Below are positions 5,104 through 64,000 of a stretch of 64,000 nucleotides of DNA, in pieces; the stretch's first letter is position 1; the number at the start of each line of letters is the position of its first letter. The DNA is from Chloroflexia bacterium (GTDB taxonomy: Bacteria > Chloroflexota > Chloroflexia > DTKN01), in the NCBI GenBank assembly GCA_034436115.1, contig DAOTVY010000045.1, positions 15,072 through 79,071 on the forward strand. The letters are read 5' to 3'. Both the position numbers and the translations under genes were made by a program. A model generated the notes under the pieces. The model saw only the letters and a program-made list of their open reading frames with translations, ran no database searches and was not told the origin of the DNA.

Positions 5104-7383
5104 ATGTCGCGGTATATCGCAACGGCTGCGATCCGGGGGGCCAACGCCATCGTCCAAGAGGCCGAGGACATGTTGGCCAAGGCGATTGCCGAACTGGGGC
5201 CGGAAACCCCGGTCGCTTTCACAAACACCGCCTACTACCTCCCCGTGATCTACGGGTTTACGGGCATCGAGGTCACCAAACTCGGCGATCTGGTCCCGGT
5301 GCTCCAGCACGCCCGCTCCCTGCTCCACCCCGTCCCGGCAGACGAAAACTGGCTCCCCTACCTGGGCGAGGCGCTGGACTGTGGGGTCGCGACCCTGCTG
5401 GCCGAAGAGGCGATCATGGGGATCCGCTTCGCCCGCGGGGAGCAGCCCGAGCGCATCCCGGGATTGGTACTCACGGGTACTTCCTTCACCAGCCCCGACG
5501 CCGAAACCGGGGAGGCTGGCGGCTACGCCAACGGGCCGATCGACGACATCCAGCTCCGTGCCTGGGGTATCCAGCTCGTGGACGGCCGTATGCCAGGGTT
5601 CGCCGCCATCGTCGGCGCCGCCAAATCCAACGAGGTGGCGGTAGAAATCGTGCGGCAACTCCAGCAGCGCAACATCCTGGTGTTCCTTTCCGGGAACGTC
5701 AACGGCCGCAGCATCATCCACCAGCTGATGGAAGAAGGGGTAGAGCTGGGCTACGACACCTATACCGTCCCCTTCGGCACGGATACGATCTCGGCGATCT
5801 ATGCCCTGGGCTTTGCCACCCGCTCGGCGCTCACGTTCGGCGGCAAGAAGGGTGGGCAGGCGCGCGAGATCCTGCTGTACAACAAGTACCGCGTCTTTGC
5901 CTTCGTCCTGGCCCTGGGAGAGGTGGATGACCTGAAGTACGCCACCGCCGCCGGCGCCATCTCCTACGGCTTTCCCACCATCGCTGACACGATTATCCCC
6001 CAGATCCTGCCCACGGGCGTCACCCAATACGAGCACGTGATCTCCATGCCCTTTGATGACATCCCCGGTGAAAACGACATCGAGCGCGCCAAGAAGCTCG
6101 TGCAAAAGTGCATCGAGGTGCGCGGCGTCAAGGTCAAGATCGCCGAGGTGCCTATCCCCGTCCCCTACGGCTCGGCCTTCGAGGGGGAGCGCGTACGGCG
6201 CGAGGACATGCGCATCGAGTTCGGTGGCAAGCATGCCCGCTGCTTCGAGTATCTGCGTATGGTCGACCTCAACGAGTGCGAAGACGGCAAGGTCACCGTC
6301 GTTGGGCCGGGGATCGAGAGCGTGCCCGAGGGCGGGGCGATGGATATGGGGATCGTCGTCGAAGTGGCCGGCCGCAAGATGCAGCTCGACTTCGAACCCG
6401 TGCTCGAGCGCCAGATCCACTACTTCATCAACGGCGCCTCCGGCATCCAGCATATCGGCCAGCGCGATATCGCCTGGATTCGCATCTCCAAGGCGGCCTT
6501 CGAGAAGGGCTTTCGCCTGGAGCATTTTGGCAAGATCCTCCACGCGCGCTTCCACGCCGACTTTGGCGCCATCGTGGACAAGGTCCAGGTCACGATCTAC
6601 ACCGACAAAGCCGAGATCGAGAAATGGCTCGCGCGGGCGCGCGAGGCCTACAACTACCGCAACCAGCGCCTGGCCGACCTGGTGGACGAGGCGGTGGAGG
6701 AATTCTACTCCTGCACGCTGTGCCAGTCGTTTGCCCCCAACCACGTGTGCATCGTCTCGCCAGAGCGCCTGGGGCTGTGCGGCGCCTACAACTGGCTCGA
6801 CTGCAAGGCCTCGTTCCAGATTAACCCCACGGGCCCCAACCAGCCGGTCCCCAAGGGGCGCTGCCTGGACCCGGTCAAGGGCTACTTCGACAAGGTGAAC
6901 GAGTTCGTCTACAAGACCTCCCACGGCACCGTGGAACAGGTCAGCATGTACTCGATCGTCGAGAACCCGATGACCGCCTGCGGCTGCTTCGAGTGCATCG
7001 CGATGGTGATCCCCGAGGCCAACGGCATCATGGTCGTCTCCCGCGAGGACCCCAGCATGACGCCAGCCGGCATGACCTTCTCCACCCTGGCCGGCATGGC
7101 GGGAGGCGGCCTGCAGACCCCCGGCGTCATGGGCGTGGGCAAGTACTACCTGCTCAGCAAAAAGTTCATCTCCGCGGATGGCGGCTTTAAGCGGGTCGTC
7201 TGGCTCTCATCCATCCTCAAGCAGACGATGGCCGAGGAGCTGAAGCAGGTGGCGATCCGCGAGGGGGACCCCGACCTGATCGACAAGATCGCCGACGAAC
7301 GGGTGGCGACCTCCGTGGACGAGCTCCTGGCCTACCTGGAGGAAAAGGGCCACCCGGCGCTGACGATGCCGCCGCTTTTCTAG
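5104..7383 (+). CDS. acsB: CO-methylating acetyl-CoA synthase (A-cluster subunit AcsB)
   Basis: 759 aa. ACGCFEC motif (Cys-Gly-Cys A-cluster bridging cysteines). GGAGG RBS. Confidence 0.9.
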   Translation: MSRYIATAAIRGANAIVQEAEDMLAKAIAELGPETPVAFTNTAYYLPVIYGFTGIEVTKLGDLVPVLQHARSLLHPVPADENWLPYLGEALDCGVATLLAEEAIMGIRFARGEQPERIPGLVLTGTSFTSPDAETGEAGGYANGPIDDIQLRAWGIQLVDGRMPGFAAIVGAAKSNEVAVEIVRQLQQRNILVFLSGNVNGRSIIHQLMEEGVELGYDTYTVPFGTDTISAIYALGFATRSALTFGGKKGGQAREILLYNKYRVFAFVLALGEVDDLKYATAAGAISYGFPTIADTIIPQILPTGVTQYEHVISMPFDDIPGENDIERAKKLVQKCIEVRGVKVKIAEVPIPVPYGSAFEGERVRREDMRIEFGGKHARCFEYLRMVDLNECEDGKVTVVGPGIESVPEGGAMDMGIVVEVAGRKMQLDFEPVLERQIHYFINGASGIQHIGQRDIAWIRISKAAFEKGFRLEHFGKILHARFHADFGAIVDKVQVTIYTDKAEIEKWLARAREAYNYRNQRLADLVDEAVEEFYSCTLCQSFAPNHVCIVSPERLGLCGAYNWLDCKASFQINPTGPNQPVPKGRCLDPVKGYFDKVNEFVYKTSHGTVEQVSMYSIVENPMTACGCFECIAMVIPEANGIMVVSREDPSMTPAGMTFSTLAGMAGGGLQTPGVMGVGKYYLLSKKFISADGGFKRVVWLSSILKQTMAEELKQVAIREGDPDLIDKIADERVATSVDELLAYLEEKGHPALTMPPLF

Positions 7384-49872: not shown

Positions 49873-50236
49873 TGAACCCCCTCCGCATGGGCATTGCCTT
49901 TTTCTATTCTACAACACCGAGCCCGCCTGGGCAACCGGTTCCCACTGGGGTTCGGACAAAAAGAACCGATCGCCCCTTGTCCCAACTCCTGTTGAACTTC
50001 AGGTTCCCAAACTTTGGCTGCCCTTCTGCCAACTCAGGATGCGCGAAACATCCCCTCCCTTCAGGACGTCTTGCTACTGATGCGTGCGCCTCGCGACGGG
50101 TTCCCACCGGATTTGTAGGGAAACAGTGGGCAAGCCGCCTTGACGGGTCCCCCTCCGGCCGCTATCATGAAAATCGCCCGTCGGGCAACTTGCGCGGGGC
50201 CGATCGGTGCGCGGGCAAAGAAAGGAGGAGAAAACG

Positions 50237-53200
50237 ATGCGCGTGCCGAAAGCCGTTTCCATCCTTTCCCTCCTCGTATTCCTGGCAACGCTGATCCCGG
50301 GCGTGACTTCTGCCCGCACCCCCCCACCGCCCGAGACACCCATCCCAACTTCCCCCGGTCCCCCTCCAGAAGTTGACCCGCAGATCCTCACGGAGATGGA
50401 CCTTTCTGCGAACGGCACCACCGGATTCTTCGTCCGATTCCGGGGTCGCGCAGACCTCTCTGCTGCCGCCCAGATCCCCGATTGGAAGCTCCGGGGCCGT
50501 TCCGTCTATGAAGCGCTGCGCGCGGTCGCCGAGCGCTCCCAGAAGCGCGTGCGTGCCTTCCTGGACGCCCGGGGCATCCCCTACCGCGTGTTTCTCACGA
50601 CGAACTCGATCTTCGTGACCGGGGACAAGGAACTGCTCCGCGAACTGGCGGCTTTCCCCGAGGTCGAAGCTTTCCGCGCCAACTATACCCACCCGCTGGA
50701 ACCGATCGAGCGCGGGGCTGAAGTCAACGCGCCCGTCGGCCCCTCCTGGAACATCGTGCTGGTCGGCGCGGACCGCGTTTGGAGGGACTTTGGCGTCCGT
50801 GGCGACGGCATCACCGTGGCCAACATCGATACCGGCGTCGAGTATACCCACCCGGCGCTCTTCCCGAACTACAAATGCGGCAGCGGCCCCCACGACGATT
50901 GCTGGTACGATCCCTCCGCGATCTGTCCTCCGGGGCAGCCGTGCGACAACGTCGGGCACGGGACACATACGATGGGCACGATGGTGGGCGACGACGACCC
51001 GACCCTTTCCTATAACGTCGGAATGGCCCCCAACGCGCAGTGGATTGCATGCAAGGGATGCGAAGACTGGTCCTGTTCCGACTTCGCCCTGAACGCCTGC
51101 GCCGATTGGATCCTTGCCCCCAACGGCAACCCCGATCATCGCCCTAACGTCGTGAACAACTCCTGGGGTGGAGGTGGATGTCAGGACTGGTACCGCACCG
51201 CGGTCGAGGCCTGGCGGGCTGCGGGCATCTTTCCCGCTTTTTCCGCCGGAAACAGTGGTCCAGGGTGCGGAAGCCTTGGTTCCCCTGGGGATTACCCGGA
51301 ATCTTTTGCCTCGGGAGCAAGCGACGCGGATGACCAAATCGCCGGCTTTTCCAGCCGTGGCCCCTCCTGCTGGGGCGAGATCAAGCCTGAGGTGGCCGCG
51401 CCCGGCGTGGACGTCTGCTCGACCGTCCCTGGAGGAGGCTTCGAGTGCACCGGCTGGTCGGGCACCTCCATGGCTAGCCCGCACTCGGCTGGCCTGGTGG
51501 CGCTTCTGTGGAGCGCGAACCTCTCCTTGATCGGGAACATCGAAACCACCGAGCGCCTGATCACCTCCACCGCCGTCTGCCGAACGGACCTTTCCTGCGG
51601 CGGCGAGGAGTGCCACAACAATGTCTACGGCTGGGGACGCATCGACGCTTATGCCGCAGTCCAACTGGTCGTCTCTCAGGGATATCTCGAGGGATACGTC
51701 CGCGATGAAAGCGGAACCCCCTTGGGCGGTGCCACCATCCTCGCCCGGCGCCGGACCACCACGATCACCGGCTATACCGATCCCACGGGCTACTATACGA
51801 TGTCCCTGCCGGCCGGCACGTATACCGTTACCGCCGCGCTCTACGGCTACGCCCCACAGACCGTGACCGGAGTCGAGATCATCACCGATACAACGACGAC
51901 CCAGAACTTTACGCTGACCGCCGTTCCCTTCTACCAGGTATCGGGTACAGTCATAGACGCCGGGGGCGGCTGGCCGCTCTACGCCCAGATCGCCATCCAG
52001 GGCGACCCCATCTCTCCCCCGCCCCCCTACGATGCGATATGGACCAACCCTCTGGATGGCTCCTACAGCATTACCTTGGCCGCAGGCATCACCTACACGT
52101 TCCACGTGCGGCCCTGGTCCAAGGGCTACCTGGAGGAAAGGCGACCAGTCGGCCCGTTGACCGGCAACGAAGTCCAGAACTTTGCCCTCCAGGTCGATGC
52201 CGAAGCCTGCATTGCACCGGGCTATCGCCCCAATTTTGCCTACTACGAGGATTTCGAGGCGAGTGACGGGGACTTTAAAACGCTCGGCTCGACCTCCTGG
52301 GCCTGGGGGACACCGACGAGCGGTCCCGGAAGCGCCCACTCTGGCCTGAACGCCTGGGGAACGAACCTGAGCGGGAATTACAACAACGCCGAGGACGGCT
52401 ACCTGGTTTCCCCACCTATCGACCTGAGCGCCTATGCCGGCCAGGGGTTGTATCTATCCTGGTGGCAATGGTTGCAGACCGAGTGGTGCTGCGACTTTGC
52501 TTCCGTCGAGGTGAGCAACGACGGGGGACAGACCTGGCGGCTCATCTATGGCCAGGCCGCCGGCAACGTTGATTTGGTCTGGACGAGACACTGGGCCTTC
52601 CTCGACCCCTCGTATGCGGTCGCAGACTTTCGACTGCGCTTCCGCCTCTATACGGACTGGTCCGTCACCTACCCGGGGTTCTACATCGACGATGTCGGCA
52701 TCCTTCCACTGCCCCTCACGACCGTCTACAGCGAGGACTTTGAAGCAAGCAACGGCGGCTACACCACCCGTGGGAATACTTCGTGGGAATGGGGCACCCC
52801 GACCAGCGGCCCAGGCAGCGCTCACTCCGGCAGCAACGTCTGGGCGACCAACCTGGAGGGCAATTACGGGCCAAACGAGAACGGCTATTTGGAGTCGCCC
52901 GAAATCGACCTGAGCGCCTACGCCGGCCAGGACCTCTACCTCCTATGGTGGCAATGGCTCCAGACGGAGTACCTCTTCGACTACGGGAGTGTCGAGGTGA
53001 GCGCGGACGGCGGCGCGACCTGGCAGCGCGTGTACGGCGAAACAAGTGGCAACGTCGACCTGGCCTGGAGGCAGCGCGGCGCCGTGCTCGACCCCTGGTT
53101 CGCCACGGAACATTTCCGGCTGCGCTTCCGGCTGCGCTCCGATCGCTCGGTCCACTTCCCGGGCTACTACGTAGATGACGTAGCCATCGCCGTTTCCCCA

Positions 53201-56200
53201 CCGGTGGTGCTCGCCTGCAACGCGCAGCAGGGAGGCCTAGTGCTCGGCAACGTCTACGACCTGAACAACGGGACACCGCTGGCGGGTGCCTGGGTGGTGA
53301 ACGACAGCCGACAGATGGACCTCGCACGCTACACCCCCGACCCGGCCGAAGACGATGCCTTCTATCTCCTCTTCTCGCCTTCCGGGTTCCACTTCTTTAC
53401 CGCCACCATGGCTGGCGGGTATCGTCCCGATGTCGAGCTGGTCGAGGTCCCCTTGGGCGGTGTGGTGCGACAGGACTTTCAGTTGGCCGCCGGGCGGCTG
53501 GAGGCTTCTCCCCACGGGCTTGCCGTCACGCTCGATATGGGACTCTCCACCACCCTCCCCTTGACGCTCCACAACACCGGCTCGGCGGCGGCCCAGTTCG
53601 CCGCGCGCGAAAGCGACCGGGGCTTTGTCCCGGCCATCACGAGCCTCCCACCGAGCGGAGAGCCGTTCAGCGCTCCGGCACCGGTCGGGCCGCTTTCTGT
53701 GCGGAGCGCCGAAGGACGTGCGGCCCTCTCCGGGATGGCCCACCCACTCGCCTGGAACGGCGCCAGCCCGGTGCCCGGTGGGGTGGTCCGCTACGCGCAT
53801 GCTCAATGCCCGGGCGAGAAGGATTCCTTCTACGTGATCTCGGGAGTGGACGGTTCCTTTCGCGTGACGGCCAACACGTGGCGTTATGATGCCCAGACGG
53901 ACACCTGGACGCCGCTCGCTCCCCTCCCCGCTCCCCAGGAGGGGCCGATCGCGGTTTGCGACGAGGGCCGCATCTACGTCATGGGCGGAGGCGGAACGAA
54001 CCAGTTCTACATCTACGATATCGCCTCCGATACCTGGAGCGCCGGCCCCGCCCTACCACGCAATGTCTGGGGCGCTGCCGCCGGCGTATGGAACGGCCGC
54101 ATCTACCTGATCGGCGGGGACGACGACTTCTGGTTCGGTGGCACTTCAGACCGGGTGGACATTTACGACATCGCCTCCGGACAGTGGATCGGCACCGGAC
54201 CATCGATGCCCTATCCCGCGTTCGCCATGGGCTTTGTCCAGGCCGGCCCTTACCTCTACATCGTCGGCGGCTGGAACGACAACTACCCGCAGAACTTGGA
54301 CAAGACCCAACGGTTCAACATGGAAAACGGCACCTGGGAAATCGGCCCTACCTTCACCAGCGCGCGCGCGGACATGGCCCTGGCCATCACGAGCCAGTAC
54401 CTCTACGCCATCGGAGGCGATGCCAACGGGGGCAGCCCCTTCGACCCCTCGGCCACCGTGGAGCGGCTCGATTGGACCGCCTGGCCAGGGGGGACCTGGA
54501 GCGAAGTGGGTGAACCTCTGCCTCGCGCCTATACCTCCAACAACGCGGGCTATTGCACGGAGGCTCGGAGCGGGGGCGAGGTATGGAGCGTCGGCGGCTA
54601 CGACGGAGGCGCCATCGTCGGGGACACCTGGTACCGGCCGTCCGAACCCTGCTTCAGCCTGGATGTACCCTGGCTTTCCGTTGTGCCGATCTCCGGTACT
54701 GTGGATGTGGCCGGAAGCCTGGTGCTGACGGTCACGTTCGACGCCGGCGTGCCCGAGGTCGATCAGCCCGGGAACTACTACGCCACTCTCTCCTTCGCCA
54801 ACGATACCCCGTACGGCTCGGTCGCTGTCCCGGTGACCCTCACTGTGCCGGCGCCGGCTTCCTGGGGAAGGCTCTCGGGCACCGTCTATAGCCTGGGCTA
54901 CTGCGATGCCCATACGGCTACCCTGGCCGCTCAGATCCTGATCGAGAGCTCGTCCGGTCAGACTTGGACCGTGCGGACGCGCCAGGATGGGACCTACGTT
55001 CGCTGGCTGGAAGCCGGGACGTACACGGTGACCGTGTCTGCCCCGGGGCACCTGCCCCAGACGGATGTGCTCGCTCTGGAGGCCGGGCAGTCGGTGGTCC
55101 ATGACGTCTCCCTGCGCCTGAACCAGCCCTGCGCGATCCTCGAACCGGCCGCGATCGAGATCTCCCTCCCATACGGCACCGGGACCTACACCCACCCGAC
55201 CGGCCTGACGCTCTTCAACCGAGGGGCCCAGGAGCTGACCTTCGCCTTCCGCGAGTTCAGCGGTTCCCTGGGCCTCGCCGGGGGGACCGTCGAGTACCTC
55301 CCCGAGCCCCACGCCGGTAATCCCACCGCGCTGCTGCATAACGGTCCCATCCAGGGATCCCTCTCCCGCCGGCCGTACGTCTACCATGTGCCCGGGGTCC
55401 AGCAGTTCAACATCATCGCCTACGCCGACGACGACCAGCACGTTCCCACCGCGGTCGAGCTCGCCCTGCAGGGCCTCGGACTTCCCTATACCTTCTACGG
55501 CTATGACCCTTACGGAGACAACCTTGGGCGCTTCCGCGATGCAGTGGAACAGGGCGGCTGGGACCTGGTCATCCTGGCGGCGGAGACCTGGTCGTTCGTC
55601 GATGCGAGCGAGTACACAGCAGTGCAGCACCATCTGGAGTTGGGTGGGCTGGCCATCGTCCAGTCCTGGGCGGTGGGTGTAGATCCGGCCCACCAGGACC
55701 ACCCGCTCTGGGCGCTCTTGGGCGGGCAGTATGCGGGCTGGCTGAACACGCCTGCCCCCCTCTACTGGTGGGATGACGGCCATCCGCTATTCAACGTCCC
55801 GGAGCAGGTGCCCGAATTCACCGATCTGAACGACTTGGGGTACTGGGCCTACGGCGCACGGATGACCCTGCTCGGTGGACCGGAAACCGGGTTGGGCGGC
55901 TTCACCGAACAGCCTGCAGAGGGCCAGGCCGGCGTCATCCTGCGCGAGGACTGGACGGCGATCTACAAGGGCCTGACAGACAACCTGAACTCGGCCGACC
56001 GGGACGCCGATGGCAAGTGGGATGCGAGCGAATGGTGGACGAACGCCGTGCAGTTTCTCCTCTATCCACCGAGCGAGGTACCCTGGCTGTGGGTTGACCC
56101 GATCAGCGGCACCGTACAGGCCGATAGCAGCGTTCATGTGGACCTCTATGTCACCGGTGTCCTGACCGAGCCTCTGCCCGTTGGCACTTACACGGCAACG

Positions 56201-56314
56201 CTGCTCCTTTCCTCTAACGACCGCATGGCCGGCTCCATCCGTGTCCCCGTCGTCCTGCGCATCTATCGCTATCGGATCTACCTCCCGCTCATCTACCGGG
56301 GACAGGCGCCCTAG
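50237..56314 (+). CDS. Secreted multidomain subtilase (peptidase S8), 2025 aa: signal peptide, I9-like propeptide, S8 catalytic domain, CarboxypepD_reg-like domains, two tandem MAM-like (choice-of-anchor J-like) domains, a 6-blade Kelch propeller, Ig-like domains, an unknown ~450-aa region, and a C-terminal RIYLPLIYR tail
   Basis: Catalytic triad motifs IDTGVEYTHP (Asp), HGTHTMGT (His), GTSMASPHSAG (Ser). Signal peptide MRVPKAVSILSLLVFLATLIPGVTSA. Kelch repeats (YVMGGGG, YLIGGDDD, YIVGGWN, YAIGGDAN, WSVGGYDG). AAAGGAGGAG RBS. Confidence 0.85.
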   Translation: MRVPKAVSILSLLVFLATLIPGVTSARTPPPPETPIPTSPGPPPEVDPQILTEMDLSANGTTGFFVRFRGRADLSAAAQIPDWKLRGRSVYEALRAVAERSQKRVRAFLDARGIPYRVFLTTNSIFVTGDKELLRELAAFPEVEAFRANYTHPLEPIERGAEVNAPVGPSWNIVLVGADRVWRDFGVRGDGITVANIDTGVEYTHPALFPNYKCGSGPHDDCWYDPSAICPPGQPCDNVGHGTHTMGTMVGDDDPTLSYNVGMAPNAQWIACKGCEDWSCSDFALNACADWILAPNGNPDHRPNVVNNSWGGGGCQDWYRTAVEAWRAAGIFPAFSAGNSGPGCGSLGSPGDYPESFASGASDADDQIAGFSSRGPSCWGEIKPEVAAPGVDVCSTVPGGGFECTGWSGTSMASPHSAGLVALLWSANLSLIGNIETTERLITSTAVCRTDLSCGGEECHNNVYGWGRIDAYAAVQLVVSQGYLEGYVRDESGTPLGGATILARRRTTTITGYTDPTGYYTMSLPAGTYTVTAALYGYAPQTVTGVEIITDTTTTQNFTLTAVPFYQVSGTVIDAGGGWPLYAQIAIQGDPISPPPPYDAIWTNPLDGSYSITLAAGITYTFHVRPWSKGYLEERRPVGPLTGNEVQNFALQVDAEACIAPGYRPNFAYYEDFEASDGDFKTLGSTSWAWGTPTSGPGSAHSGLNAWGTNLSGNYNNAEDGYLVSPPIDLSAYAGQGLYLSWWQWLQTEWCCDFASVEVSNDGGQTWRLIYGQAAGNVDLVWTRHWAFLDPSYAVADFRLRFRLYTDWSVTYPGFYIDDVGILPLPLTTVYSEDFEASNGGYTTRGNTSWEWGTPTSGPGSAHSGSNVWATNLEGNYGPNENGYLESPEIDLSAYAGQDLYLLWWQWLQTEYLFDYGSVEVSADGGATWQRVYGETSGNVDLAWRQRGAVLDPWFATEHFRLRFRLRSDRSVHFPGYYVDDVAIAVSPPVVLACNAQQGGLVLGNVYDLNNGTPLAGAWVVNDSRQMDLARYTPDPAEDDAFYLLFSPSGFHFFTATMAGGYRPDVELVEVPLGGVVRQDFQLAAGRLEASPHGLAVTLDMGLSTTLPLTLHNTGSAAAQFAARESDRGFVPAITSLPPSGEPFSAPAPVGPLSVRSAEGRAALSGMAHPLAWNGASPVPGGVVRYAHAQCPGEKDSFYVISGVDGSFRVTANTWRYDAQTDTWTPLAPLPAPQEGPIAVCDEGRIYVMGGGGTNQFYIYDIASDTWSAGPALPRNVWGAAAGVWNGRIYLIGGDDDFWFGGTSDRVDIYDIASGQWIGTGPSMPYPAFAMGFVQAGPYLYIVGGWNDNYPQNLDKTQRFNMENGTWEIGPTFTSARADMALAITSQYLYAIGGDANGGSPFDPSATVERLDWTAWPGGTWSEVGEPLPRAYTSNNAGYCTEARSGGEVWSVGGYDGGAIVGDTWYRPSEPCFSLDVPWLSVVPISGTVDVAGSLVLTVTFDAGVPEVDQPGNYYATLSFANDTPYGSVAVPVTLTVPAPASWGRLSGTVYSLGYCDAHTATLAAQILIESSSGQTWTVRTRQDGTYVRWLEAGTYTVTVSAPGHLPQTDVLALEAGQSVVHDVSLRLNQPCAILEPAAIEISLPYGTGTYTHPTGLTLFNRGAQELTFAFREFSGSLGLAGGTVEYLPEPHAGNPTALLHNGPIQGSLSRRPYVYHVPGVQQFNIIAYADDDQHVPTAVELALQGLGLPYTFYGYDPYGDNLGRFRDAVEQGGWDLVILAAETWSFVDASEYTAVQHHLELGGLAIVQSWAVGVDPAHQDHPLWALLGGQYAGWLNTPAPLYWWDDGHPLFNVPEQVPEFTDLNDLGYWAYGARMTLLGGPETGLGGFTEQPAEGQAGVILREDWTAIYKGLTDNLNSADRDADGKWDASEWWTNAVQFLLYPPSEVPWLWVDPISGTVQADSSVHVDLYVTGVLTEPLPVGTYTATLLLSSNDRMAGSIRVPVVLRIYRYRIYLPLIYRGQAP

Positions 56315-62515: not shown

Positions 62516-64000
62516 TCAAGGACTCGTCCGTCGGATCAGCGGCAGGTAGACGCGGTGCGGGACGGAGCACCAGACGCTCACGCTGCCCGAGAAGGTGTCC
62601 TGCTGAGCGGGTACGCAGTTGCTCACCGTTAGGGTGAAGGGATAATTGCCGGGCCAGCCAAACTCGACCGTCGGGGTCGGCTCCGTCCGGACCCCGAGAG
62701 GCCCCAGATCCCACGTATAGGAAAAAGGCGGCGTTCCCGACAGTCGCGCGGTAAAGGTGACCGTGCACCCGCTGGTGGCCGTCACCACATCGAGGATCTG
62801 CACCGGCTCACACCCCGCGATGTGGAAAAAGACCGCCGTGAAGGGACCCCAGTAGCCATCCTGGGAGCGGCCATGCACCAACAAGTAGTGGACCCCTGGT
62901 GTGAGCCCCTCGGTATCCACCGTGGCCTGGACCGGTTCTACGATCTCGTCAAAGGCGCCGTCCAGCGGGGCCAGCGGCAGGCCCGTTCCATCCGCTCCCG
63001 GGGCATCGATAAAGTATTCCGCCGCGGCCACGGGTCGCTCGGGCACCGAGCAGTCGGAGTTCTGGATGCGATGGTCCTCCAGGGTAGCGGAAAGCAGGAA
63101 CGGCTCGCCTGCGGGCACCGGGTCCGGGGAAACAGAGAGGGTATGGGCATCCGGCCCGTAGACGGTGGTATAGGGGTCCGGAGCAACGATCTTGGCGGCG
63201 TGCACGAAGGCAGGCAGGTTCTCCTCCCAGATATCCCAGGGGAATTCGTTCCCCCAGCAGGCCTGGAAGAAATCTTCCCCCATCTCGAAGGTGAACGAGG
63301 CCACGCCCCGATCGCCGTAGAACCAGTCGTCGGTCGTGCCGTTGGGGTTGTACCAAAGCACCTCCCCTGGCCGGCCGACCTCGTAGCCATTGTAGGTCGC
63401 CCATTTGCACCCGATCGCGCGCAGTGCCGCATCGTCCGGTGCCGGTTCTGGGGCATTGTAACTCCAGGGGATCAGGATCGCGTTCCAGTAACTGTGCAAC
63501 GTCAGCATCATCCCCGTCGTGTCCGCCGGCTCCGGGAACAGCTGTGTTCCGAGCGACTGGATGGCCTGCGTTTCGGGCTCGGATGCCGCAGCGACGCCGC
63601 GATACCCCTGAGCGCAGGGGTCCGAGGTGGAGCCACTGTTGTCGTAGGCCCACATGTAGGCATAGTTGCGGTTGATGTCCACCCCGTAGTGGTTGTACGC
63701 CGTTGGCGGCCAGGCACAGCCGGGGTTCACGCTATCGTTGGTGTTCTTCCGCCACCACCAGCCTGAAGGCTCCACCATCTTCCGGCCGTCGGGGTTGACC
63801 AGGGGAACCACCCATACCTCGCGGTGATCGACCAGCCAAGTCACATCTGGGTCGACGCCATACCCACCGGCACCCCGGAAACCACCGGTGAGGTAATCGA
63901 TGAAAAAGTCGGCCACCTCGGGCACGACCATTTCCCGGGCATGGTGCTCCGAGACGATCAGTAGGGTGGGTTTGGGCCCGGGAATCGCTTCGTTGGTGAT
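62516..64000 (-). CDS. M14-family zinc carboxypeptidase (partial; the N-terminus lies beyond the window end) with C-terminal PKD-like domain and RVYLPLIRR tail
   Basis: SEHHAREMV (HxxE zinc motif) at the window edge; M14 core; C-terminal beta-rich domain; ends ...VPHRVYLPLIRRTSP. Confidence 0.75.
   Translation of the reverse strand: MTNEAIPGPKPTLLIVSEHHAREMVVPEVADFFIDYLTGGFRGAGGYGVDPDVTWLVDHREVWVVPLVNPDGRKMVEPSGWWWRKNTNDSVNPGCAWPPTAYNHYGVDINRNYAYMWAYDNSGSTSDPCAQGYRGVAAASEPETQAIQSLGTQLFPEPADTTGMMLTLHSYWNAILIPWSYNAPEPAPDDAALRAIGCKWATYNGYEVGRPGEVLWYNPNGTTDDWFYGDRGVASFTFEMGEDFFQACWGNEFPWDIWEENLPAFVHAAKIVAPDPYTTVYGPDAHTLSVSPDPVPAGEPFLLSATLEDHRIQNSDCSVPERPVAAAEYFIDAPGADGTGLPLAPLDGAFDEIVEPVQATVDTEGLTPGVHYLLVHGRSQDGYWGPFTAVFFHIAGCEPVQILDVVTATSGCTVTFTARLSGTPPFSYTWDLGPLGVRTEPTPTVEFGWPGNYPFTLTVSNCVPAQQDTFSGSVSVWCSVPHRVYLPLIRRTSP

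Follow-up and report, generated by a model that had tools for sequence, protein, structure and literature searches.

In a 64,000-nt stretch of a Chloroflexia bacterium genome (assembly GCA_034436115.1, contig DAOTVY010000045.1, positions 15,072 to 79,071; hereafter the window), an S8 subtilase and an M14 carboxypeptidase encoded on opposite strands end in the same short peptide. Judged by their sequences, both tails are instances of the YLP-box, a motif already catalogued in NCBIfam as a putative sorting motif; they are routine members, the M14 tail clearly and the S8 tail at threshold. The box is probably an envelope sorting or retention signal that is recognized in trans, for which docking would be likelier than sortase-like transpeptidation.

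The subtilase translation ends in ...YRIYLPLIYRGQAP (longer version, VVLRIYRYRIYLPLIYRGQAP) and that of the carboxypeptidase in ...HRVYLPLIRRTSP (longer version, SVPHRVYLPLIRRTSP), each directly followed by a stop codon. The terminal tail that the initial annotation had reported as common to the two peptidases is thus present in both translations. The features concerned are as follows.

50237..56314, forward strand: S8 subtilase gene, 2025 amino acids (open reading frame [ORF], translation, Pfam)
50237..50314, forward strand: S8 signal-peptide-like segment, MRVPKAVSILSLLVFLATLIPGVTSA (inspection of the translation only)
56075..56263, forward strand: S8 last folded module, directly before the tail (repeat of an internal BACON_2-like segment)
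56270..56299, forward strand: S8 YLP-box, Y-R-I-Y-L-P-L-I-Y-R, spanning -5 to +4 relative to Pro (sequence)
56300-56311, forward strand: S8 post-box residues GQAP, then stop codon TAG at 56312-56314
62516..64000, reverse strand: M14 carboxypeptidase gene, 3′ part; the gene exceeds the window end (ORF, Pfam Peptidase_M14)
62594..62776, reverse strand: PKD domain before the M14 tail (Pfam PKD, residues 386-446 of the 471-residue window part)
62528..62557, reverse strand: M14 YLP-box, H-R-V-Y-L-P-L-I-R-R (sequence)
62519-62527, reverse strand: M14 post-box residues TSP, then stop codon at 62516-62518

The shared tail is real and far beyond chance. Both copies fit the consensus [YF]-L-P-[LIV]-[VI]-x-[RK] with no more than 5 residues before the stop (YLPLIYR plus GQAP in S8, YLPLIRR plus TSP in M14), and, because only 3-4 residues lie beyond the basic residue, neither has a hydrophobic helix. 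The Leu codons of the two cores differ (tac ctc ccg ctc atc in S8, tac ctg ccg ctg atc in M14), and conservation is therefore at the peptide level and not that of a DNA repeat; on both of these points the initial annotation was correct. When all six frames of the window were searched for Y[LIV]P[LIV][LIV], the S8 and M14 tails were the only terminal matches, and there was one internal match in a different ORF, at 5236. The low number of copies in the window, two, could be taken to favor a chance similarity, or a DNA element shared by two gene ends, but this explanation is close to negligible in view of the codon differences, the massive C-terminal excess of the box over hundreds of proteins in many Chloroflexota genomes, and the existence of curated hidden Markov models. 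A shared DNA repeat or terminator was ruled out by the differing codons and the peptide-level conservation.

NCBIfam release 20 holds two models titled "YLP-box putative sorting motif-containing protein": NF050076 (sort_motif_YLP; 11 positions, cut-off of 15 bits) and NF053834 (ultrashort_CTERM; 10 positions, cut-off of 10 bits). Both tails align across the whole of these 10- to 11-position models, and the catalogued motif is the same as that of the S8 and M14 tails, with no difference in kind. The 471-aa part of M14 encoded in the window scored 15.2 bits with NF050076 and 13.6 bits with NF053834, and a 94-aa M14 fragment scored 17.5 and 15.9 bits, all at or above the cut-offs. A 43-aa fragment of S8 scored 14.6 bits with NF050076 (under 15) and 13.3 bits with NF053834 (above 10); a 99-aa fragment scored 12.8 bits with NF050076 (cut-off 15), with no match reported for NF053834, and for the full-length S8 protein no match to either model was reported. 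Canonical boxes of other genomes scored 12.9-17.6 bits with NF050076 and 10.0-14.0 bits with NF053834, and many canonical boxes likewise fell below the NF050076 cut-off (range about 12-17.6 bits). By these scores, S8 is an ordinary member at the edge of a conservative threshold. The initial annotation had proposed a novel tag; the novelty does not stand, since NF050076 and NF053834 already describe the motif and both tails match, the S8 tail at threshold. A literature search for YLP-box, for YLPL with Chloroflexi, and for the peptide strings YLPLV, YLPLI and IYLPLV found no relevant paper, and the motif is known as a database entry without published mechanism. Our additions to that entry are modest: occurrences away from the C-terminus, alternation with dockerins and transmembrane (TM) tails, a coil prediction, and a small-protein/fiber module.

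The box is frequent among homologues of the window proteins. Of the top 120 M14 homologues, 91 end in [YF]-L-P-[LIV]-[VI]-x-[RK]-x(0-5), and the logo derived from these 91 sequences is [YHFW]-[RYQ]-[LIV]-[YF]-L-P-[LIV]-[VI]-x-[RK], or approximately 10 residues. The distance from the Pro to the end is 4-9 residues, R/K is found at +4 in 76 of the 91 sequences, and 31 of the 91 boxes end exactly at R/K. At E ≤ 1, before curated cut-offs, NF050076 matched 36 and NF053834 matched 32 of the 120 tails, with the box recognized by eye in 91. The strict pattern Y[LIVF]P[LIVF] occurred 61 times in the last 16 residues versus 3 times in approximately 94,000 internal residues, a terminal enrichment therefore far beyond chance. 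The named M14 homologues came from Anaerolineae and Chloroflexi metagenome-assembled genomes (MAGs), and one cluster mate is named Chloroflexia bacterium. In S8 orthologues with at least 90% identity, the core YRIYLPL[IV]YR was invariant and both flanks varied; by this pattern, the box is under purifying selection. S8-type relatives at other loci likewise end in YLP-boxes.

A scan of 185,579 species genomes with one codon-restricted DNA word for R-[LIV]-Y-L-P-L-V-x-[KRHQNS] gave at least 119 stretches, which were counted as C-terminal when a stop fell within 16 codons of the Arg at -4. Among the matches listed, 93 of 120 were in Chloroflexota-named records (62 C-terminal), 21 were in other phyla (1 C-terminal, in a 32-codon ORF that is probably spurious), and 6 were in unnamed records (4 C-terminal). 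The lineages represented among these matches were Anaerolineales, Thermoflexales, Caldilineaceae, Ardenticatenaceae, Chloroflexaceae and Roseiflexus, and approximately 16 of the 67 C-terminal boxes ended exactly at R/K. Terminal boxes other than the seeds numbered 18 in 677 kb of Chloroflexota loci versus 0 in 163 kb of other loci. On these counts, the motif is restricted to part of one phylum, namely Anaerolineae (Thermoflexales, Caldilineales and Ardenticatenales included) and Chloroflexia. The density in the window (2 per 64 kb) matches that in the Chloroflexota loci and therefore suggests carriers on the order of 100 per genome, a number that would be inflated if such genes cluster.

Some of the scan matches differ in detail from the consensus or in their setting. 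Approximately 21 of the 67 C-terminal boxes among the matches listed continue as R-N-x, often as R-N-[YF] at or near the very end (for example, loci L015, L022, L029, L037, L056, L102, L105, L112 and L113), which hints at an Asn preference at +5 and a motif slightly longer in some lineages. Tandem boxes were observed in the last 30 aa of protein P0117, which ends ...RLYLPIVGRAGPPGEGIRLYLPLVLNK, and in the probably spurious 32-codon ORF of a Planktothrix record (L097), which reads KLFLPLYRLYLPLVLHQP up to its stop. A contig of a MAG labeled Hyphomicrobiaceae (L088) carries two terminal YLP-box proteins, and two contigs labeled Steroidobacteraceae (L008 and L073) carry a Limnocylindria-type housekeeping protein with an internal box word; this suggests that the three contigs were mis-binned into Proteobacteria-labeled MAGs. 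This conserved protein, of approximately 930-990 aa and found mainly in Limnocylindria-type MAGs, has no signal peptide and contains ...DERRVYLPLV[IV]RAPxxALGxVDAxWYVR at an internal position. It accounted for 11 matches (L006, L013, L016, L024, L025, L046, L072, L073, L106, L110 and L121; for example, ORF p2_1563 of L016, with 993 codons). Its neighboring genes are syntenic, and the protein looks cytoplasmic. Its internal box word is probably an unrelated coincidence.

Both window proteins are multidomain and carry signal-peptide-like N-termini. The S8 ORF frame extends over 50207..56314 (forward strand), with ATG 50237 as the likely start, and several assemblies contain the identical 2025-aa product. 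From Pfam and inspection, its layout is a signal peptide, Peptidase_S8, CarboxypepD_reg, two InhA-like MAM domains, a Kelch propeller, BACON-like repeats, and the YLP-box; in this mosaic, approximately 300 aa without Pfam matches precede the last repeat. The listed M14 ORF (62516..63931, reverse strand) continues past the window end, its window part comprising 471 residues. The full-length protein, recovered from L001:14222-16186, has 654 aa and an N-terminus, MAFLRGMWRILLCAGLVLLLPLGAFAGA, that is signal-peptide-like by inspection.

The domains that precede the two tails were also compared. The last module of S8 (63 residues) is 41% identical to the internal segment at 54587-54916 (BLASTP, E 3e-9), and that segment matches Pfam BACON_2 with 18 bits, under the 25-bit cut-off. 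Pfam found no significant domain in the last 130 or 430 residues of S8. The initial annotation had placed a beta-rich Ig/PKD-like domain before both tails. For M14 this is confirmed by the Pfam PKD match and by a beta-sandwich in an AlphaFold2 model; for S8, an Ig-like label is plausible, and with BACON_2 below cut-off it is not firmly shown. In the AlphaFold2 model of the M14 window part (40-sequence alignment, mean pLDDT 80.8), the beta-sandwich comprises residues 378-453 (mean pLDDT above 90 over residues 381-450), and the last 18 residues are coil, over which the ten-residue block means of pLDDT drop from 80 to 53. The model places the YLP-box outside the fold of the preceding domain. This placement bears on the possibility that the box is a structural element, either the last beta-strand or a stabilizing extension of the preceding Ig-like domain, and is inherited with it. 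The box is usually found within 5-10 residues after a beta-rich domain, and its I/V/Y/L residues favor beta structure, as such an element would require. However, besides being left as coil outside a confident PKD fold, the box is lacking from the internal copy of the S8 BACON-like repeat, and it follows PKD, CarboxypepD_reg, a choice-of-anchor Q beta-helix, beta-propeller repeats, a Pro/Thr linker, or a signal peptide directly. We consider a structural role very improbable.

The proteins that carry the box are diverse. Complete carrier ORFs ranged from 94 to approximately 1,570 aa, and end-truncated carrier ORFs exceeded 2,600 aa. An N-terminal hydrophobic signal-like segment was detected in 29 of 38 complete carrier ORFs (crude score ≥ 10), and L007 (score 8) has such a segment too, by eye. 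Carriers included S8, M14 and C25-like peptidases, beta-propeller and LamG-like proteins, right-handed beta-helix proteins, and small secreted proteins of 94-131 aa. The box follows different last domains, or none; in this comparison, it behaves as an independent module appended to unrelated folds on exported proteins. The M14 homologues, the genome scan and the diversity of carriers bear out the expectation that the tag recurs on unrelated secreted proteins, and its abundance in M14 homologues and Chloroflexota genomes decisively contradicts the possibility that it is confined to the two peptidases of the window.

Homologues without the box show what takes its place. In the M14 homologue P0055, Dockerin_1 (30 bits) stands at the position of the box, and in another homologue, probably P0107, the box is replaced by a TM-helix with a basic tail (weak GlyGly, PTPA and LPXTG-type matches). 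Dockerins were the commonest replacement among M14 homologues. Dockerin-like Ca-binding repeats were observed as tails in P0055, P0059, P0078, P0084, P0101, P0057, P0087, P0095, P0113, P0014 and P0015; P0014 matched Pfam Dockerin_1 with 20.6 bits, and P0057 has a DLDxDLDVD-type tail without Pfam match. In two carriers, the residues directly before the box are the end of a choice-of-anchor Q domain (81 and 44 bits; cut-off 25). In NCBIfam naming, choice-of-anchor domains are so called for being followed by different sorting signals across lineages. The 677 kb of Chloroflexota loci contained no LPXTG-type tails, and TM-helix tails numbered four at most. By these comparisons, the box takes the place that in homologues belongs to dockerins, TM-helix tails or other sorting signals. 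The alternation with dockerin and TM tails, the choice-of-anchor Q domains, the coil prediction and the scarcity of classical tails together support what the curators propose, a signal that places or anchors exported proteins. The part of the earlier proposal that read the tail as a sorting or processing tag is therefore retained as sorting or anchoring, which the distribution fits, without its novelty.

Most boxes are at the extreme C-terminus, as first described, but boxes are also found near signal peptides and between domains. In four Chloroflexota loci (L017, L081, L107 and L119), a signal peptide or TM segment comes first, the box 9-25 residues later, and the functional domain after the box. 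In L107 the order is signal peptide, QDEPPAPP, RVYLPLVLRH, with the box at residue 42 of a 652-codon ORF; the part that follows resembles a lamin-tail domain plus a PLD-like enzyme (HKD-type motifs by eye). In L017 the box is followed by a long Pro/Thr linker, and the arrangements in L081 and L119 are comparable. Interdomain boxes were found in approximately 10 loci (L039, L051 and L093 among them). The ORFs in L051 (979 aa, reverse strand) and L093 (989 aa, forward strand) encode gingipain-like peptidases (C25-like by sequence features) from different Thermoflexales MAGs, and each has a conserved internal box, between the N-terminal half and the catalytic domain, in addition to a terminal one. 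The internal box of these two proteins may be either a processing point or a fixed fusion.

These dual-box peptidases would suit a reading in which the box is a processing or maturation site, at which an extracellular protease separates pro-regions or domains without anchoring: cleavage would leave both products with a box at their ends, the invariant basic residue at +4 would be a fitting target for an Arg/Lys-specific protease, and carriers are often proteases themselves (S8, M14, C25). Most boxes, however, have only 0-5 residues downstream, and cleavage there would remove almost nothing. Many carriers are non-enzymes or proteins of 94-131 aa, and the exchange of the box for dockerin or TM tails speaks for placement rather than activation. 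We regard a processing site as unlikely, although more probable than a structural element.

The mechanism that we favor is recognition in trans. Sec export would expose the box on the exoprotein, and a Chloroflexota-specific envelope component would recognize it and thereby keep or place the exoprotein in the multilayered cell envelope. If docking is non-covalent, the short peptide may be bound in a receptor groove. The variable residues after R/K may be trimmed. In Litorilinea (Chloroflexota), the envelope is multilayered and its outermost layer encloses the whole filament (PMC13319060), which makes a signal for placing proteins in such layers plausible.

The principal competitor of docking is a covalent sorting signal, in which a dedicated transpeptidase, working like sortase, PorU or exosortase, would cut within or behind the box and attach the protein to peptidoglycan or some other polymer of the envelope. 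The strong bias toward the C-terminus, with short and variable residues past R/K, is reminiscent of a leaving group; the box stands in for classical sorting tails and comes after choice-of-anchor Q domains; C25-like peptidases (by sequence features members of PorU's family) carry boxes in the Thermoflexales loci L051 and L093; and the curators' own name is "sorting motif". Against covalent transfer, there is neither a TM helix nor a basic cytoplasmic tail for membrane retention, and docking is favored because no TM segment would hold the substrate at a membrane enzyme. Docking is favored also because R/K is the last residue in a quarter to a third of the boxes, which then have no leaving group: cleavage after R/K is impossible in 31 of 91 M14 homologues and in approximately 16 of the 67 C-terminal boxes among the scan matches listed. 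C-terminal transfer would be pointless for boxes that immediately follow a signal peptide or separate two domains, and such boxes argue against a purely C-terminal cleavage-and-transfer mechanism, and the commonest replacement here, the dockerin, is itself non-covalent. No candidate enzyme was found in the Pfam lists of the window loci or in the neighborhoods of approximately 98 loci, a search of low power. Taken together, non-covalent docking is a serious though tentative possibility that we place ahead of covalent sortase-like transfer, which seems rather unlikely. The basic residue at +4, the Asn preference at +5 and the boxes on C25-like peptidases leave room, speculatively, for trimming or processing.

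Several observations weigh against a sorting signal read by docking. The tight C-terminal spacing in approximately 80% of cases is unexplained by docking and would also fit a need for a free C-terminus or for cleavage. Non-terminal boxes are a minority (approximately 14 credible versus 62 terminal among the scan matches listed), and some could be relics of duplications or fusions. The signal peptides of carriers were judged by a crude heuristic only, and the S8 tail is under the NF050076 cut-off (14.6 or 12.8 versus 15 bits). Our searches found no experiment or paper on the YLP-box, whose curated name itself reads "putative", and we know of no receptor for it. Wall-spanning Pro/Thr stalks are nearly absent, with a Pro/Thr-rich 30-mer before the box in 1 of 129 cases; there is no classical stalk-plus-anchor design, and a Pro/Thr stalk plus anchor was dropped as a general design. 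In the Pfam lists for the surroundings of the window genes, no sortase-, CPBP- or rhomboid-like gene was found, only ordinary chromosomal genes (AI-2E transporter, ScpA/B, VanW/PG_binding_4, IF3, L20, LysM, DegV, CysRS, CdhD and others). All-against-all clustering of 2,296 ORFs from approximately 98 loci, which had low power, yielded no recurrent non-carrier neighbor, with the exceptions of synteny around an unrelated housekeeping protein and of a two-gene module around small YLP-box proteins.

Comparison with known systems helps to place the box. Like the LPXTG, PEP-CTERM, GlyGly-CTERM and MYXO-CTERM signals, the YLP-box tags the C-terminus of Sec-exported surface proteins from many unrelated families, and the LPXTG and CTERM classes occupy the same architectural slot after choice-of-anchor domains. 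Unlike sortase signals, the box has no LPXTG, TM helix or cytoplasmic basic tail, and it can end the protein or sit near the N-terminus. In S8 and M14, TIGR01167 (LPXTG anchor) had no match and the LPXTG-helix-basic tail layout was not found; NCBIfam models of the PEP-CTERM, GlyGly-CTERM, exosortase and rhombosortase types likewise had no match, and no TM segment was present. The dockerin of dockerin-cohesin systems is also a C-terminal, non-catalytic appendage, which places exoenzymes non-covalently on a surface scaffold, but it is a folded Ca-binding domain of approximately 60 aa whereas the box is a 10-aa linear peptide. Pfam PF00404 (dockerin type I) did not match S8 or M14, and we know of no cohesin-like receptor for the box. 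The C-terminal domain of the type IX secretion system (with PorU, in Bacteroidota) marks large secreted hydrolases, including proteases, for surface attachment, as the box may do, with C25-family peptidases involved or tagged. It is a beta-sandwich of approximately 80 aa needed to cross the outer membrane, whereas the YLP tail is modeled as 10-14 aa of coil; Por_Secre_tail had no match in S8 or M14, and the M14 tail is 14-18 residues of coil after PKD, with no folded domain.

More distant parallels were also considered. The eukaryotic KDEL, PTS1 (-SKL) and N-terminal PTS2 signals are very short, receptor-read terminal peptides with N- and C-terminal versions; the analogy is one of working, since organisms, compartments and sequences are unrelated and there is no homology. 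The donor strands of chaperone-usher pili and of the Pam pili of the CPR (bioRxiv 10.64898/2026.03.03.709456) are short, beta-prone terminal peptides, and the box could similarly complete a partner's fold. It is hydrophobic on both faces with a central Pro, however, whereas donor strands alternate. In its most specific form, our proposal is that the YLP-box is the ligand of a Chloroflexota-specific surface-docking system, that is, a TM-less signal of approximately 10 residues, at the C-terminus, after the signal peptide or between domains, that would be read by a receptor in the multilayered envelope and not processed by a sortase-like enzyme; in this full form we consider it doubtful, if worth pursuing.

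One group of carriers stands apart by its size and its neighbors. This small secreted family (94-131 aa) has a signal peptide, a core of the type NYxLDWxT..GGGG...Y.L.GGFW.G, and a C-terminal YLP-box (often ...RIYLPLVLRN[YF]), and is encoded at L015, L067, L074, L099, L105, L112 and L113 and on an IMG/VR contig (L125:~1570-1950, reverse strand). Two members had a weak NCBIfam match to the CPR tip pilin PamT (E 1.6e-6; 27.7 bits versus a cut-off of 240 bits) that takes in the signal peptide; a PamT or donor-strand lead from this family is speculative, the match being weak and including the signal peptide. A secreted protein of approximately 400-630 aa, without Pfam match and ending ...GAVIGKALE..G.G.I.LVTLQ, is encoded in these small-gene loci and looks fiber-like (ORFs L067 p1_604, L099 m2_1332, L105 p1_1251, L015 p0_2486, L010 m1_1537, and L125:1920-3110, reverse strand). 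Its gene shares a locus with the small YLP-box gene in L015, L067, L099, L105 and L125, and in L125 it lies immediately upstream; in L010, a homologue adjoins a 454-aa carrier. Large regulator genes cluster at some of the loci of the fiber-like and small genes, and one fiber-like copy is on a contig that IMG/VR calls viral. The phage contigs of IMG/VR contained 2 box matches, one of which was the small secreted family beside the fiber-like protein. The idea that phage envelope-binding proteins borrow the box was dropped, as there were 2 matches only and the small-family contig is not clearly viral.

The Chloroflexota envelope is unusual and poorly understood (PMC13319060, PMC7332563). In filamentous members of this phylum, the exoproteins that appear to bear the YLP-box number on the order of 100 per genome and include proteases, carboxypeptidases, beta-helix proteins and small secreted proteins. 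The non-terminal occurrences of the box, its alternation with dockerin and TM tails, and its predicted out-of-fold position narrow the mechanisms worth testing. If the box does serve a docking system, it would represent a new class of bacterial protein-placement signal for these approximately 100 exoproteins. The identity of its partner could give a minimal ten-residue surface-display tag and would explain how Chloroflexota that are abundant in the environment and in wastewater display their hydrolases.

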